Origin: a bacterium
GTDB lineage: Bacteria > Patescibacteriota > Minisyncoccia > Phycocordibacterales > UBA9973
Length of the DNA: 40,650 bases
Direction of reading: 5' to 3'
Assembly: GCA_037140115.1 (NCBI GenBank)
Contig: JBAXFB010000001.1
Span: 1-40,650, forward strand
Part shown: positions 12,380 to 24,013 of the stretch, piece after piece
Layout of the letters: each line of letters starts with the position of its first letter
Position numbering within the stretch: the stretch's first letter is position 1
Made by a program: the position numbers and the translations under genes
The notes under the pieces: model-generated
The model's input: only the letters and a program-made list of their open reading frames with translations
The model's database searches: none
What the model was told of the DNA's origin: nothing

Positions 12380-13651
12380 ATGATGAAAAAGTTTAATTAT
12401 AAAAATTTTAAACGACGGCTTATAAATAACCTTTTAGGTTTTCACTTTTTTCGCGATCCTTACAAGAAATTAAAAATTATTGCAGTCACGGGCACAAATG
12501 GCAAGACGACGACAGCCACGCTTCTATATAAAATTGCCACAGAGCTGGGATATAAAACAGCATTGATAAGTACTGTGGAAAACATTATTGGCTCGCGGGA
12601 TAATATAATTCCGCATAGTGCAAAAGGTCCAGGTACGACTCCTGACCTGACTTATTTAAATAAGCTTTTAAAAGCCGCTGTTAAGTACGGTTGTGAGTAT
12701 GTTTTTATGGAAGCGACATCGATTGCCTCGGATCAAGACAGATTTGCGGGTATAAATTTTGCTGGTGGAATTTTTACAAACCTGACTCACGATCATTTGG
12801 ATTATCACAAAACTTTTGAGAATTATTTCGGTGCCAAAAAAAGATTTTTCCAAAAACTAGGTAAGCATGCTTTTGCTCTCACGAATGCTGATGATGAATA
12901 TGGACTAAAGATGCTGGAGGGGATACATGCGCACTCATTTTCTTACGGTTTTAATCAAAATTTTGATAAAGTACTTTTCCATGGAGAAATTAAAAAATCC
13001 AGTTTTGATGGTTTAGATCTTTCTTTTAACAAGATTGATTTGAGCACCAAACTTCTCGGTAAATTTAATGCATACAATCTCCTTGCTGTTTGGAGTGCGT
13101 GTTCTTTACTTGGTTTTGATATGGATAGAGTTAATAAAATAATAGAAAACATAGAGCCACCGCGTGGCAGGTTCCAACACTTTACTTCGAAAAGTGGCGT
13201 ACTTTCTATTGTTGATTATGCTCATACGCCAGATGCTCTCGAAAAAATCCTAACAGCAATAAAAGAAGTTGCGGAAGTCGGACTTCCGCAAAAGGGTAGA
13301 ATAATTTCTGTTTTTGGTTGCGGTGGGGATCGTGATCCGCTCAAACGTCCAGTCATGGGGCTTGTGGGTGCAAATCTTTCTGATATTGCAATTTTTACTT
13401 CAGACAATCCGCGAAGTGAAGATCCAGATAAAATTCTGCATCAAATGACAGAAAAATTATCACCAGAAGAAATTAAAAAAGTGAAAACAATTCCAGACAG
13501 ACGTGAGGCAATCATCGAAGCTGTAAAGTTGGCCCAAAAAGGGGATGTTATACTAGTGGCAGGTAAAGGCCACGAAGATTATCAAGAAATAAATGGAGTC
13601 AAGAACCATTTTGATGATATGGAGGAATTGAAAAAACTTTACTTAGAATGA
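12380..13651 (+). CDS. murE: UDP-N-acetylmuramoyl-tripeptide synthetase MurE (short N-terminus)
   Basis: IIAVTGTNGKTTTA P-loop, NLTHDHLDYH, VDYAHTPDAL, GCGGDRD, SDNPRSEDP are typical of MurE. Confidence 0.85.
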   Translation: MMKKFNYKNFKRRLINNLLGFHFFRDPYKKLKIIAVTGTNGKTTTATLLYKIATELGYKTALISTVENIIGSRDNIIPHSAKGPGTTPDLTYLNKLLKAAVKYGCEYVFMEATSIASDQDRFAGINFAGGIFTNLTHDHLDYHKTFENYFGAKKRFFQKLGKHAFALTNADDEYGLKMLEGIHAHSFSYGFNQNFDKVLFHGEIKKSSFDGLDLSFNKIDLSTKLLGKFNAYNLLAVWSACSLLGFDMDRVNKIIENIEPPRGRFQHFTSKSGVLSIVDYAHTPDALEKILTAIKEVAEVGLPQKGRIISVFGCGGDRDPLKRPVMGLVGANLSDIAIFTSDNPRSEDPDKILHQMTEKLSPEEIKKVKTIPDRREAIIEAVKLAQKGDVILVAGKGHEDYQEINGVKNHFDDMEELKKLYLE

Positions 13652-18532: not shown

Positions 18533-18564
18533 CAAAAAGTGGTCAACCTGGCAGGTTGACCACT
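18533..18564 (-). terminator. Rho-independent terminator downstream of rpsA
   Basis: GTGGTCAACCT-ggc-AGGTTGACCAC. On the minus strand it is followed by TTTTT. Confidence 0.75.
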
Positions 18565-18593: not shown

Positions 18594-19712
18594 TTACTCT
18601 AGATGTATCAAAGTCATCTTCTGATCCTTTGGTTCGAAGAGGGTGATTTGGAAATTGTAGTTCTTTCCAAGTTCTAGTTTCTCTCTTAGTTTTGCCTCTG
18701 TTGGAAAAGTTGAGTTGTGGACTAGTCCTGCTACGCCTTCCTTGATAGAGATCAGAGCACCATGTTTGTTGTATTTGATAACAACCCCCTTGATGATGTC
18801 TCCTTTTCTTAGTTTACCTTCGAATTCTTTCCAAGGATTTTCCTTTAGAGCCTTTACTGAAAGGGAACTCTTGCCATCTTTGATCTCGATAACTTTAGCG
18901 CGGATTTTGTCGCCAACCTTGAACATAGTTCGAGGATTGTCTACAAGACCCCAATCAAGTTCAGAGATGTGTACTAAGCCTTCTAGTCCGTCTTCTAGTT
19001 TTACGAAAACCCCGAAGTCTACAAGTCCAGCTACTGTACAATCTAGATCGTCGCCAACATTGTATTTACTTAGGATTTCCTTTTTCTCTTCTGGGTTGTT
19101 GTCCTTTTCAGAGAAGATCAATTTGCCTTCTTTTGGAAGGGTAGAGATGATCATCACAGAAATCTTTTGGCCGACGAGTTTCTTGAGCTCTTTTAATATC
19201 TTATCTTTATCAGAATCTAGAACGCGAGGGTAGTGGTCGGCTTTAAGTTGAGATGCAGGTAGGAAACCTTGGATACCTTGCCATTCCAAAATAAGTCCAC
19301 CTTTGTTTGCATCTTTGATTTCTAGGCTCATCACTGTCTTTTCCTTGATAGCTTTTTCAGCTTCGTTCCAAGTCAGCGCTTGCTTCGCTTCCTTTAGGGA
19401 AAGCTCGGTGTAGCCATCTGAGTTTTCTGTTTCGACAACCTTTGCCTTAATAATATCGCCTGGACGAATCTTCTTGATGATGTCCTTTGCGTTGATGAAT
19501 TCGCGACCATAAATGATACCTGTGCCAAATGGCGCCAAGTCTACATAAACAGATGATTTTTTGACGTTGATAACTGCTCCTTCTACTAATGTATCAACTT
19601 CAGGCTTGTTGACACTGCGAGATACGATCATGCCTAAAACTGAAGTGTCTTCGACTGGGGCTACTACTGGTTCTTTTTTCATATAATGTTTTAAAATTAA
19701 AAAATCCGCCAT
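18594..19712 (-). CDS. rpsA: 30S ribosomal protein S1 (four S1 domains)
   Basis: Repeated S1/OB-domain motifs (GxVxxVxxxGxFVxL-type: GLVDFGVFVKLEDGLEGLVHISEL and others). The true start may be the internal ATG at 19682 (MKKEPVV...), because codons 1-10 overlap a hairpin plus T-run. Confidence 0.85.
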   Translation of the reverse strand: MADFLILKHYMKKEPVVAPVEDTSVLGMIVSRSVNKPEVDTLVEGAVINVKKSSVYVDLAPFGTGIIYGREFINAKDIIKKIRPGDIIKAKVVETENSDGYTELSLKEAKQALTWNEAEKAIKEKTVMSLEIKDANKGGLILEWQGIQGFLPASQLKADHYPRVLDSDKDKILKELKKLVGQKISVMIISTLPKEGKLIFSEKDNNPEEKKEILSKYNVGDDLDCTVAGLVDFGVFVKLEDGLEGLVHISELDWGLVDNPRTMFKVGDKIRAKVIEIKDGKSSLSVKALKENPWKEFEGKLRKGDIIKGVVIKYNKHGALISIKEGVAGLVHNSTFPTEAKLREKLELGKNYNFQITLFEPKDQKMTLIHLE

Positions 19713-19838
19713 AAGCGGATTAAGGTCTAGGTTCTAAAGAGGTACATACACTCAATAGGGTTACCCTAAATCCTGCTAATAATCAAAACTAATATTGTCA
19801 GTCTAGCAAAAAAGAGTCTAAATAGCAATCTAGAGCTC

Positions 19839-19865
19839 CCCACTTGGCGGTTTAACCGCCAAGTG
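19839..19865. repeat. REP-like palindrome copy 1 (ccCACTTGGCGGTTtAACCGCCAAGTG)
   Basis: 25-nt perfect palindrome with 12-nt arms, 13 nt upstream of the Y1 transposase ATG. Confidence 0.85.
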
Positions 19866-19878
19866 CTAAAATAAACTC

Positions 19879-20397
19879 ATGAGAAGAGTGCCACTTGCAA
19901 CTGGGGAAATTTACCACATCTTTAATAGAGGAGTCGACAAGAGAAAAATTTTTTCTGATCAAAAAGACCTGGATAGATTTTTTGAAAGTATTTTAGAGTT
20001 CAATAACATCGAGCCAATTGGAAGTTTGTTTGAAAAGAGTTTCCAGAAAGACAAAATTAAAAAGCCTCTCGTGGAATTTGTAGCATATAATATTTTGCCG
20101 AACCATTTTCATTTCGTTTTGAAACAAGTTTCTGAAAACGGCATCAGTGAATTCATGAAGCGCCTCTTGGGAGGTTATACGTGGTATTTCAATCATAGGC
20201 AAAAGAGATCTGGCTCCTTATTTCAAGGAACTTTTAAAAGCAAGCATATAGATTCCAACGAATATCTTTTACATGTGAGCGTCTACGTAAATTTGAACGA
20301 CAAAATCCCACTTGGCGGTTTAACCGCCAAGTTGAACAAATCGAGCTGGAATGAGTATGTAAATCCGGATTTAGTTAATAATTATGAACGAATATGA
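19879..20397 (+). CDS. IS200/IS605-type Y1 (HUH) transposase-like protein, REP-associated tyrosine transposase (RAYT/COG1943-like), interrupted by an in-frame TGA
   Basis: YHIFNRGVDKRKIF, HUH motif LPNHFHFVL, GSLFQGTFKSKHIDSNEYLLHVSVYVNLN with catalytic-Tyr context. Homolog-like sequence continues in the same frame after TGA 20395-20397 up to TAG 20515-20517. Confidence 0.8.
   Translation: MRRVPLATGEIYHIFNRGVDKRKIFSDQKDLDRFFESILEFNNIEPIGSLFEKSFQKDKIKKPLVEFVAYNILPNHFHFVLKQVSENGISEFMKRLLGGYTWYFNHRQKRSGSLFQGTFKSKHIDSNEYLLHVSVYVNLNDKIPLGGLTAKLNKSSWNEYVNPDLVNNYERI
20307..20333. repeat. REP-like palindrome copy 2, inside the transposase CDS (encodes PLGGLTAK)
   Basis: ccCACTTGGCGGTTTAACCGCCAAGTt, 24 of 25 nt identical to copy 1. 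Confidence 0.85.
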
Positions 20398-20517
20398 TAT
20401 GGCAAAGATATCATCCTCGATCAGTTTGACTCAACTGAAGACTATAAAAAATTTGCTTTTTCTTCTTTGGAAGACATACGGCTCAATAAAGAAAGTTATA
20501 AAGAGCTGGAAGAATAG
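20398..20517 (+). other. In-frame post-TGA continuation of the RAYT-like ORF (YGKDIILDQFDSTEDYKKFAFSSLEDIRLNKESYKELEE*)
   Basis: Same reading frame as 19879-20397. Resembles the usual C-terminal tail of this protein family. Confidence 0.6.
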
Positions 20518-20543
20518 CCACTTGGCGGTTTAACCGCCAAGTA
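20517..20543. repeat. REP-like palindrome copy 3
   Basis: gcCACTTGGCGGTTTAACCGCCAAGTa, immediately after TAG 20515-20517. Confidence 0.85.
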
Positions 20544-20592
20544 GGGGAATGCGGCAGTGATTTTATTTATTTTTTCTGCTATAATATACGGA

Positions 20593-21237
20593 ATGATAAT
20601 CACATATTTCGGTAAACAATTTTTTAAGGTACAACAGGGAGAAATGGTTCTTTCGTTTAATCCTGTGAGTAAGGGTTCAAAGACTGGCATAAACGCTCAT
20701 TTTGGTGCCGACATAGCTCTTGTCACCACAAATCATCCAGACTTCAATGGCATAGATCAGCTTGCTCATGGTGAACGTGTGCCTTTCGCTGTGACAGGCC
20801 CGGGGGATTACGAAGTAAAAGAAATTTTCATCAAAGGAGTTTTGTCTGATGCATTAATTGGAGATAAGAAATTCATAAATACAATTTATTCTCTTACTGT
20901 AGATAATATAAATATAGTTTTTCTCGGGGCTCTTTCGAGTGCAGATTTACCTAAAGAGGCGATAGAGGCAGTGGGCAGTCCAGATATTCTTTTTGTGCCT
21001 GTGGGAGGCCTGTCTGCGCAGGCAGGAAATGGAGTGCTTGATGCAAAAGGTGCTAGCAAGCTCGCTGCTGCTCTTGAGCCTAAATTAATTATTCCGATGG
21101 ATTATGACCCTGCATCACTTAAAGCTTTTCTAAAAGAGTCTGGTGAGGAAAAGGCAGAAGTAGTCGACAAATTGACACTGAAGGCAAAAGATTTAGAAGG
21201 TAAAGAAGGAGAAGTAATCGTATTAAAAAGTCTATAA
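20593..21237 (+). CDS. MBL-fold metal-dependent hydrolase-like protein (UPF0173-like, degenerate metal motif)
   Basis: MIITYFGKQFFKVQ...ALVTTNHPDFNG...ILFVPVGG...LIIPMDY follows the short MBL-fold pattern. TATAAT at 20580-20585 favours ATG 20593 over the track start at 20557. Confidence 0.6.
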   Translation: MIITYFGKQFFKVQQGEMVLSFNPVSKGSKTGINAHFGADIALVTTNHPDFNGIDQLAHGERVPFAVTGPGDYEVKEIFIKGVLSDALIGDKKFINTIYSLTVDNINIVFLGALSSADLPKEAIEAVGSPDILFVPVGGLSAQAGNGVLDAKGASKLAAALEPKLIIPMDYDPASLKAFLKESGEEKAEVVDKLTLKAKDLEGKEGEVIVLKSL

Positions 21238-21241
21238 AAAT

Positions 21242-21517
21242 ATGAAAAAGATTATTCACCATTTAAGAAGTAAGCCAGAACATATTCGAAGACACATTTT
21301 GCATGTGCTCACTGTCGTCGCTGGATTTATTTTGTTGTCTATCTGGTTTTTTTCTTTGAGTGTTCATTTCAGTGATCCTGATACACAGGTAAAACTAGCA
21401 CATGATGTAAAGCCATTTTCAGCGTTGAAAGACAATTTAGTGGGTGGCTATCAGAGTTTATCCGCACCAAACGCAAGCACCGAATCTGATTTAAAAGCTC
21501 AAGTAGATAATCTGTAA
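21242..21517 (+). CDS. Small membrane-anchored hypothetical protein
   Basis: 91-aa ORF with one TM helix (VLTVVAGFILLSIWFFSL). Confidence 0.5.
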   Translation: MKKIIHHLRSKPEHIRRHILHVLTVVAGFILLSIWFFSLSVHFSDPDTQVKLAHDVKPFSALKDNLVGGYQSLSAPNASTESDLKAQVDNL

Positions 21518-21541
21518 AATTCCCGCCAAAGGCGGACAAGT

Positions 21542-24013
21542 ATGAAAAAAAAACAAGAAGAATCAAATAAAGAAGTTGCAATCACAGATAAAATTTTGCC
21601 AGTGGATGTTGTGACTGAGATGAAAGAGTCGTATTTGGCGTATGCCATGTCTGTTATCACTTCACGTGCGCTTCCGGACGTGCGTGACGGACTAAAACCT
21701 GTGCATAGAAGAATTTTGTATGCCATGCATGAGATGGGTCTTACGGCTTCTGCTCGTTTTCGTAAATCTGCTGCAGTAGTGGGAGATGTGCTCGGAAAAT
21801 ATCATCCTCATGGAGACGTCGCGGTGTATGATTCTATGGTGGGAATGGCGCAAGAATTCTCTTATCGTTATCCTTTTATTTTAGGACAAGGAAACTTCGG
21901 TTCGATTGATGGCGACAATGCAGCCGCAATGCGTTATACCGAAGCAAAGATGTCCAAGATCTCTGGTGAGCTTTTGCGAGATCTTGAAAAAGAAACTGTT
22001 GATTTTCGTCCAAACTATGACCAGACTCGTAAAGAGCCAATTGTGTTTCCATCATCTGTGCCTGCGCTTCTTTTAAACGGAACCCTTGGTATCGCTGTTG
22101 GTATGGCGACAAACATTCCTCCGCACAACTTGGCAGAAGTTTTGGATGCGACAAAGCATTTGATAGAAAATGAAGATGCGACCACTGAAGACCTGATGCA
22201 ATTCATTAAAGGTCCAGATTTCCCGACTGGTGGTATTGCTTATGGCCATAAAGATATGTTGCATGCCTACTCAGGCGGACGTGGTGGAGTAGTCACCAGA
22301 GGTGAGGCAGAGATCGTGGAACAAAAGGATGGCAACTTTTCTATCATCATTACTTCGATTCCTTTTCGTGTGAACAAATCAAACTTGATCATGGCTATCG
22401 CTGAGCTTGTACAAGAAAAGAAGCTTGAAGGCATAAAGGGTTTGCGTGATGAATCTGCGAAAGATATTCGTATAGTGATTGATTTGAAGTCTAGCGCTCA
22501 TCCAGAAAAAGTTTTAAATTATATTTACAAAAACACTCAACTTGAATCAAATTTCAACTTCAACATTGTGGCATTGGTGGATGGTGTGCCGCAGACTTTA
22601 TCGCTCAAGTCTATCCTTGAGCAATTCGTGCTTCACAGGAGGGAAGTTGTAAAGAGACGCACCGCTTATGATCTCAGGCGAGCAGAAGAACGAGAACACA
22701 TCTTGCTTGGTTTGAAAAAAGCGCTCGATAAGATAGACCGTGTTATCACTATCATCCGTTCTTCAAAGAATTCTCAAATCGCGAAAGTAAACTTAATGAA
22801 AGAGTTTAAGTTTTCTGATTTACAGGCGACAGCTATCTTGGAAATGAAGTTGGCAAAGCTTGCGGGGCTTGAACGCAAGGCCGTCGAAGATGAATTAGCA
22901 GAAAAGCAGAAATTTATTGCAGAAATGAAAGAGATTTTGGCAAGCCCAAAGAAGGTCTTAAAAATTATTGTAGATGAATTGGTAGAAATCCGTACAAAAT
23001 ATGCTGACGAGCGACGCACAAAGATAGTAAAAGGTGGCGTTAAGGAGATTTCTGACGAAGACTTGGTGCCAGAAAAGGAAACTATGCTAGTACTCACTGC
23101 TGGTGGTTATGTAAAGTGTACTGATCCATCAGAATATCATGCACAAAAGCGCGGAGGTGTGGGTGTCATAGACCTAGAAACCAAAGAAGAAGACTTTGTG
23201 ACTATGCTCGTCTCTGGTTCTACACACAGCAATCTCTTGTTCTTTACCAACCTAGGTAAAGTTTACCAAATGAAAATGTACGATATTCCAGAAGGCCGCA
23301 GAGCTACTCGTGGTAAATCTATCATGAACTTCCTTTCTCTGGGTGGGGAAGAAAAAGTTAATTCTATTTTAGCAATGCCCAAGGAGGACAAGAATATAGA
23401 TAAATCTCCGGCCTCCTTAATGCTTGTGACCAAAAATGGTACAGCGAAAAAAATGTCTTCTGAGAGTTTCAAGGATGTGCGTCGCAGTGGCATCATCGCT
23501 ATTCGTTTAGACAAAGACGATCAGCTCATTTCTGCGTTGGTCACAGAAAAGGGTGATGAAGTTATGATCGCGACTGGTGACGGACAGTCCATACGCTTCA
23601 AAGAATCTGATATCAGAGAGATGGGCAGGACTGCTGGTGGAGTGCGTGGAATAAAATTAGATAAAGACGATGCTGTCATAGGCGTGGACGTTGTGAAAAA
23701 GGGTAGCGAGAAGGGTGCGTTTTTGACGATGAGTGCAAATGGTTTTGGAAAAAAGACTGATCTTAAAGAATATAAAGTTCAAAATCGTGGTGGTTCAGGT
23801 ATCAAGACTGCAAAAGTTACTCCAAAAACAGGTCAGCTTATCGTGGCAAAAGTTTTGACTGGCGAAGAAGCGGAATTAATCGCAATGTCTAAAAAAGGCC
23901 AAGTCATTCGGACAGCTTTGAAAGATATTTCTTCTCTTGGACGTCAGACACAAGGTGTCACCATCATGCGACTTCGCGGTGGGGATGGAATCGCATCGTT
24001 GGCATGTATTTAA
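21542..24013 (+). CDS. gyrA: DNA gyrase subunit A
   Basis: [28 protein letters not shown], active-site AAMRYTE, C-terminal beta-pinwheel repeats. Confidence 0.97.

Follow-up and report, generated by a model that had tools for sequence, protein, structure and literature searches.

Concerted evolution of a 23-nt palindrome in and around a RAYT-like transposase gene of Patescibacteria

Introduction

What keeps the copies of a short palindrome alike when they lie on both sides of a transposase gene and also, in frame, within its coding sequence? The question is raised by one locus in a 40,650-nucleotide stretch of DNA from a patescibacterium; "the window" below means that whole stretch. It touches on a wider problem, since the spread and uniformity of REP sequences and the function of RAYT proteins are still open questions after four decades. 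The subfamily described here is a compact test bed for them, with tiny genomes, a handful of copies, a sharply bounded 23-nt unit, and copies that can be traced from species to species at orthologous positions, some of them within the gene for the enzyme. The window locus is itself a degenerate example, yet it led to a family-wide pattern that would surprise specialists.

Results

Three palindrome copies at the window locus

Three copies of the palindrome, all on the + strand, lie at 19841-19865, 20309-20333 and 20519-20543 of the window, and the number expected by chance is none (0 matches in 100 shuffles). An earlier note, made from the letters alone, had called all three perfect 25-nt palindromes; the three copies are there, but only copy 1 is a perfect 25-mer with 12-nt arms, its last base being G where copies 2 and 3 have T and A, respectively. 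Common to all three is a 23-mer made of two 11-nt arms around a single centre base, lying at 19842-19864, 20310-20332 and 20520-20542 and with a C before it in each case. The copies are listed here by site.

19841..19865, no strand assigned: upstream (U) copy, perfect 25-mer with 23-nt core 19842-19864; position occupied in most homologous loci
20310..20332, no strand assigned: internal in-frame copy (site I2); codons 20308-20331 read PLGGLTAK
20518..20544, no strand assigned: downstream (D) copy, 23-nt core 20520-20542; D is present in most loci

The ATG at 19879 follows copy 1 after a gap of 13 nt, and copy 2 encodes PLGGLTAK in frame after the YVNLN motif (residues 144-151, 8 residues past the catalytic Tyr136), both as the note had it. 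Copy 3 had been placed immediately after the TAG of an extended ORF. Its core indeed begins 2 nt past that TAG (20515-20517), and in close relatives the extended D stem takes in the TAG itself; the TAG closes the ORF, however, only if an in-frame TGA at 20395-20397 is read through. Folding of the mRNA around 20309-20333, suggested as a check, gives a strong predicted hairpin, and each of the window copies folds as RNA at -17 to -23 kcal/mol (z-scores -2.9 to -4.3). Folds of this strength favor an explanation at the RNA level, in which the hairpins control how stable the transposase message is, how fast it is translated or how RNase cleaves it, and selection acts on RNA structure; in E. coli, REPs downstream of genes are known to influence mRNA decay (10.64898/2026.03.23.713779).

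The gene between the flanking copies

The gene and its neighbours are as follows.

19879..20397, + strand: first part of the Y1/HUH transposase ORF, 172 codons, up to the in-frame TGA at 20395-20397 (Pfam match, fold match)
20395..20397, + strand: TGA at codon 173, Cys in homologs (invariant in 74 sequences)
20398..20517, + strand: same frame continued for 39 codons plus TAG, carrying the C-terminal helix that the family conserves (186-211 in the model); 32 of these 39 residues are identical in P0002
18594..19712, - strand: divergent S1-domain gene, left syntenic neighbour (the same neighbour in at least 12 related contigs)
20557..24013, + strand: MBL-fold gene, 91-codon ORF and gyrA, right syntenic neighbours (order recurs in relatives)

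The gene product scores 30.4 bits against the Pfam Y1_Tnp model (PF01797; cutoff 23), and its HUH motif (H76 and H78, at 20104-20112) and catalytic Tyr136 (20284-20286) are invariant among 74 aligned homologs. The AlphaFold (AF2) model of the product has a pLDDT of 82, and its best solved fold match is 4er8_A, the E. coli RAYT on a REP hairpin (E 2.7e-6, probability 1.00), followed by the TnpA proteins of IS608 and ISDra2; a sequence-profile search of the PDB with the gene product gave no match, and these relatives are found by fold search only. The earlier description of a RAYT-like Y1 transposase agrees with these results. On the NCBIfam RAYT equivalog model (NF047646) the gene reaches 28.5 bits against a cutoff of 80, and because it lies so far below this curated model we call it RAYT-like by sequence, rather than a certified RAYT member.

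Homologs of 204-215 residues number in the thousands. The order S1 gene, transposase gene, MBL-fold gene, 91-codon ORF, gyrA is found in at least 12 contigs, with protein identity of 69-88%, and each ortholog is present in one copy per genome, the paralogs in the window's own genome being 37-47% identical. Judged by these comparisons, the window gene is vertically inherited and single-copy, not a multiplying insertion sequence. The 705-bp unit does resemble an autonomous IS200-like element whose left-end and right-end hairpins would be copies 1 and 3: it has the Y1 fold, a size (about 700 bp) and layout like those of IS200, with a single Y1 gene between two hairpins, and the IS200/IS605 transposase structures are its next-best fold matches. 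We consider this identity highly unlikely. An element of that kind is hard to reconcile with a gene that keeps its place on the chromosome in 12 or more related contigs and with the single copy of each ortholog beside paralogs of such low identity; left and right IS ends would differ, whereas the end hairpins here are identical and symmetric; the best fold match is a RAYT and not an IS transposase; and, in contrast to IS200, IS608 and ISDra2, the locus has no evident guide or cleavage tetranucleotides and no tnpB.

Three further, divergent Y1 paralogs lie elsewhere in the window's genome (C2:30142-30902, C32:8027-8464 and C3:16567-17211). The first has a 21-nt hairpin of its own at -53 and +686, with a third copy on contig C34 (C34:5081); no hairpins were detected at the C32 and C3 paralogs. 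In relatives of the genus, whose genomes are of about 0.6 Mb, the number of Y1 paralogs is 1-12 per genome.

An in-frame TGA at codon 173

Among 161 complete loci the window locus alone has a premature stop; the other 160 are intact, and every close relative has Cys at codon 173. The 39 codons past the TGA are conserved as well as the rest of the gene, so the break must be very recent or an error, that is, either a very recent mutation or an assembly or sequencing error. An alternative genetic code or selenocysteine at this codon was considered and rejected: TGA is a normal stop in the window, where it ends 5 of 25 long open frames and where frames of up to 842 codons run without an internal TGA; no tRNA-Sec was found in the genome; and the relatives have Cys.

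Four fixed sites across the family

We collected 80 loci from species genomes and 80 from metagenomes and scanned the gene and flanks of each for hairpins. A palindrome occupies at least one of four fixed places in 151 of 163 homologous Patescibacteria loci, against a background of 10 of 644 control windows from the same loci. Site U lies about 40 nt before the ATG, I1 near codon 59 and I2 near codon 148 (both in frame, I2 being the site of the window's internal copy), and D directly after the stop. U and D are both present at 121 of the 163 loci, and the commonest patterns, with the empty loci, are these.

U-I2-D (the window's type): 44 of 163 loci
U-I1-I2-D: 37 of 163 loci
U-I1-D: 21 of 163 loci
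U-D: 19 of 163 loci
no palindrome at any site: 12 of 163 loci

A single reading frame is kept by 55 of 65 non-redundant copies at I1 and by 74 of 75 at I2, and the position and frame of the sites are constant across proteins that are 43-80% identical. Comparison of these sequences indicates that the in-frame site is ancient and shared throughout the family, its position and frame being fixed. What had been taken for an unusual local oddity is thus a feature of the family, with an I2 palindrome in 80 of 140 distinct proteins. Alignment of homologs also disposes of the suggestion that the PLGGLTAK segment is an insertion, because the site is family-wide and loop lengths at I2 with and without a palindrome overlap.

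In most loci the foot of the palindrome is conserved as ACTTGG...CCAAGT, and its 11-nt apex varies. In the RAYTs studied so far cleavage is guided by a GTAG or CGTC head, which these palindromes lack; only a few distant loci start with GTAGG. A shared 5' CC context had been pointed out for the three window copies, of which the C is common to all three 23-mers. Family-wide, an asymmetric head motif beside the palindrome is unsupported, since the flanking bases depend on the site and just extend the palindrome.

I1 lies just before the HUH strand and I2 just after the helix of the catalytic Tyr. In the model of the window protein the pLDDT falls below 50 at residues 146-149 only; in that of a second member, which has both sites, the stretch below 50 is residues 152-160 and coincides exactly with I2, and the values around I1 are 57-64. 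The in-frame sites are thus poorly modelled and are probably flexible loops. Low-confidence loops at both internal sites, and an I2 loop of similar length with or without the palindrome, are what neutral passengers might be expected to occupy. Such copies would have been placed by insertion near the enzyme's gene and into two tolerant loops, and would be kept alike, without any enzyme, by replication template switching or short-tract recombination between nearby hairpins. Decayed palindromes in some intact orthologs point in the same direction (in the syntenic orthologs L004, L105 and L116 the gene is intact and only the palindromes have decayed, so the hairpins are not essential for retention of the gene), as do the in-frame REPs known from unrelated genes of other phyla, which are thought to be neutral (PMC3733652). 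We nevertheless regard neutrality as unlikely: position and frame are held constant across proteins as divergent as those above, and palindrome density in the gene is about 100-fold above the genome average.

A promoter-like site on the upstream copy

A consensus scan of the window sequence found the following site.

19844..19872, + strand: promoter-like site on the U copy (9 of 12 matches, TG present)

Its -35 hexamer (19844-19849) lies within the left arm of U and is followed by a 17-nt spacer; the right arm ends in the TG of the extended -10 (19864-19865); and the -10 hexamer (19867-19872) starts 2 nt past the palindrome, with the ATG another 6 nt further on. This arrangement suggests that the U copy supplies the -35, the spacer and the TG of the gene's own promoter. 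An ATG only 6 nt past the -10 implies that the mRNA would be leaderless, in which case the U copy lies outside the transcript, a difficulty for any role of the hairpins in the message. Across the family the motif G-n-TAnnnT follows U in 64 of 113 non-redundant loci, D in 2 of 108 and the internal copies in 0 of 141, and the commonest gap between the U palindrome and the ATG is 14-15 nt. A U copy that forms part of the predicted promoter in most loci also fits poorly with palindromes that are neutral passengers.

Copies within a locus evolve together

The mean distance between 23-mers is 1.85 of 23 nt within a locus and 8.4 between loci, and 71% of within-locus pairs differ by at most 1 nt. Among the syntenic orthologs of the window's clade each apex variant is common to the coding and the non-coding copies, and the peptide shifts with the palindrome (Leu to Phe, Thr to Ala, Leu to Trp); since the gene is syntenic in this clade, these changes of the palindrome occurred in place. 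Loci L112 and L113 show a compensated pair of changes, and L106 and L107 a one-sided change, the same mismatch being present in all three copies; the latter means that spread between copies is faster than repair within a hairpin.

For mismatches, the within-locus to between-locus ratio never exceeds 0.12 over positions 3-21; it rises to 0.2-0.4 in the two outermost positions of each side (1-2 and 22-23) and to about 1.0 beyond them, and the sequence flanking the 23-mer is not conserved within a locus. The homogenised tract ends sharply at the edges of the palindrome, and the unit acted on is 19-23 nt. A shared homology of 23 nt only is difficult to accommodate if neutral recombination between nearby hairpins is the cause.

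All three window copies have T as the centre base, which gives them the same nominal orientation, as the earlier note had remarked from their context. The agreement has no family-wide meaning, since orientation between copies is about 50:50 for every site pair across loci (U against D, for example, is the same in 40, inverted in 36 and symmetric in 2). Nor was there an excess of G:T over A:C among stem mismatches (21 G:T vs 38 A:C). Within the window's clade the flank copies flip the centre base freely; the coding copy never flips, because the flipped form would create a stop codon. Random orientation, the lack of a G:U bias and the restraint on the coding copy together point to homogenisation as a DNA-level process rather than RNA or peptide selection. 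Selection on mRNA hairpins would in addition leave the identity between copies and the shared-mismatch variants unexplained, and with loop orientation random and G:U-compatible mismatches in no excess we find it quite improbable as the cause.

Conservation of the peptide at the protein level, or chance, might have produced an internal copy with no link to the flank copies, and the motif L-G-x-x-x-x-K is indeed widely conserved. But changes in the coding copy are matched in the non-coding flank copies, the peptide varies exactly as the palindrome does, and the number expected by chance is 0; the co-change of flank and coding copies and the identity within loci refute this origin, to which we attach practically no credence. 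The encoded peptide is a passenger of the DNA sequence. It had been foreseen that homologs might encode the same peptide without the palindrome; instead, homologs carry the palindrome, and the two change together.

Protein distance, with the two loops masked, correlates with the distance between flank palindromes (rho 0.54; exceeded in 0 of 500 permutations, a significance that is inflated by relatedness).

Some loci (L227, L006, L010 and L210) hold two palindrome variants, each at two of the four sites: at L227 (364-1092) U matches I1 and I2 matches D, and at L010 U matches I2 and I1 matches D. Genome G058 has two dispersed families, which match the two variants at its gene.

Dispersed copies in relatives

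A genome-wide count, the obvious check for a REP population, gave a divided answer. In the window's own genome (623 kb, 80% complete) the only copies are the 3 at the locus, an outcome that the earlier note had named as pointing to a local duplication. Even so, relatives have the palindrome family dispersed: in each of ten further genomes that contain a family member, 5-20 copies of that genome's own variant were counted (control pattern 0), some of them as adjacent inverted doublets. Within the window's genus there are 0-4 copies outside the gene, and blastn found in the window's genome no orthologs of the dispersed copies of G001, the nearest genome compared. With a nonsense codon in the gene and no dispersed copies, the REP/RAYT system of the window's genome looks dead or dying. 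In the two genomes compared for it (G051 and G055), both of which keep more distant paralogs, an association between loss of the palindrome family and loss of the closest ortholog is suggestive at most.

Relatives carry in-frame copies in pheT, mnmA, topA, dnaX, uvrB, miaA, gatB, a GT2 gene and a PGA_cap gene, and these housekeeping-gene palindromes are found in all three frames, as would hardly be expected of hairpins selected for a role in the transposase mRNA. The pheT site has a palindrome in 6 of 8 related genomes, in four different variants, and orthologous mnmA and GT2 sites and one further site likewise carry genome-specific variants; at each of these the variant is that of the genome's own RAYT gene. 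Genome-specific variants at orthologous sites appear to be new, and they show turnover in place. Template switching or recombination confined to nearby hairpins is also hard to square with homogeneity that takes in housekeeping-gene copies, copies on other contigs and copies separated by hundreds of kilobases.

Two dispersed copies of G001 and the D copy of its gene share about 30 nt of flank (L224:744, L225:705 and L226:1777), with an extended -10-like motif pointing into the palindrome, so that the repeated unit there is longer than the palindrome. Doublets or partial duplicates are translated in topA, uvrB and gatB of other Patescibacteria (L183, L187 and L195), where they add at least 16 residues.

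Discussion

We hold, with slightly more confidence than doubt, that the locus belongs to a large subfamily of RAYT-like Y1 transposases specific to Patescibacteria and was inactivated recently, that the gene forms a "REPtron" with its palindromes, that the 23-mer is the cognate REP hairpin, and that the enzyme drives rewriting of the copies in place and regulates its own gene. Of the causes first offered for the internal copy, gene conversion and a regulatory hairpin fit this explanation, the homogenisation being conversion-like and a regulatory role being supported; self-targeting in the sense of a one-off insertion does not, the site being ancient and family-wide.

The enzyme's part is argued by analogy. 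Studied RAYTs from E. coli and Marinomonas cut single-stranded DNA at CT or CA, 5' or 3' of REPs, and transfer strands (PMC8266576), and in the palindromes described here the CA and CT of the conserved foot fall exactly where homogenisation begins. We infer that the Y1 enzyme may perform the homogenisation. It would cut single-stranded hairpins at the CA/CT dinucleotides of the foot, and the strands would be rejoined between copies so that the apex is overwritten in place; with either strand open to such exchange, copies would stay in place and in frame while their orientation became random. Extrusion of the hairpin at the U copy, or binding of the enzyme there, could shut the promoter and so limit the enzyme's own production. 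A promoter-embedded hairpin of this kind offers a simple, testable model for self-limitation of a domesticated transposase.

We also put forward, tentatively and with more doubt than belief, a bolder version, in which the domesticated Y1 enzyme would maintain a genome-wide set of 23-nt hairpin cassettes by cutting the foot and swapping the apex, and would so rewrite short in-frame stretches in housekeeping genes as well as in its own ORF and promoter, position and frame staying as they are. The enzyme would then be self-referential, with its recognition site built into both its coding sequence and its on/off switch, and it would be a natural site-specific exchanger of single-strand cassettes. 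If the enzyme does rewrite the copies, the subfamily would give the first direct handle on REP homogenisation; an enzyme derived from a mobile element would be shown to edit, continually, short stretches of coding sequence in essential genes of the candidate phyla radiation; and a minimal programmable activity for single-strand DNA exchange would be suggested.

The likeness to REPtrons as known (RAYT/TnpA_REP, e.g. E. coli YafM, PDB 4ER8, with REP/BIME) extends to a Y1/HUH enzyme with its best fold match there, a single vertically inherited gene between copies of its own GC-rich palindrome, palindromes scattered in relatives' genomes, at times as inverted doublets, co-divergence of enzyme and palindrome, and several gene/palindrome pairs in some genomes. 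The differences are that here the palindrome is also found in frame at one or two fixed sites in the enzyme's own ORF; that the upstream copy appears to be part of the promoter; that the palindrome is a perfect and symmetric 23-mer whose foot is ACTTGG and which has neither a GTAG nor a CGTC head; that copy numbers are very low (0-20); that the hosts are Patescibacteria with genomes of 0.6-1.3 Mb; and that the gene falls below the NCBIfam RAYT cutoff. Orientation is variable here, whereas flanking REPs are always inverted, as Nunvar 2010 reportedly holds.

Palindromic repeats in frame have precedents. Intragenic REPs are found in repair, replication and tRNA-synthetase genes (Di Nocera et al. 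2013, PMC3733652), and the same work describes REP termini that supply stop codons and, in one case, different REPs at about the same recB site in two Xanthomonas species. Such REPs and the Rickettsia palindromic elements (RPE-1/4/6) share with the present family their place inside housekeeping genes, although in the window's genome the family is confined to the RAYT gene and the housekeeping copies are those of relatives. The present family differs from both in that the transposase gene itself is included, the units are of 23 nt only, and orthologous sites in at least 4 genes carry genome-specific variants. Mitochondrial genes of Nematomorpha contain perfect inverted repeats in frame with both arms translated (PMC6649704); these are much longer and organellar, and they have no associated transposase and no family of identical copies. 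In our literature search we met no account of a RAYT ORF with REPs inside it, of a RAYT promoter built from a REP, or of the present subfamily in Patescibacteria.

The same genome also contains further GC-rich palindrome families of low copy number, with 2-4 copies each, at 13273-13287 and 18543-18559 of the window and on contigs C28, C49, C55, C15, C2, C9 and C58. One member of these lies just 3' of the S1 gene, and no cognate gene was identified for any of the families. The leader of the S1-domain gene contains a terminator-like hairpin with a T run (19703-19721, - strand), about 20 nt ahead of the likely true start of that gene (MKKEP...), and this hairpin could be an attenuator or regulatory hairpin.
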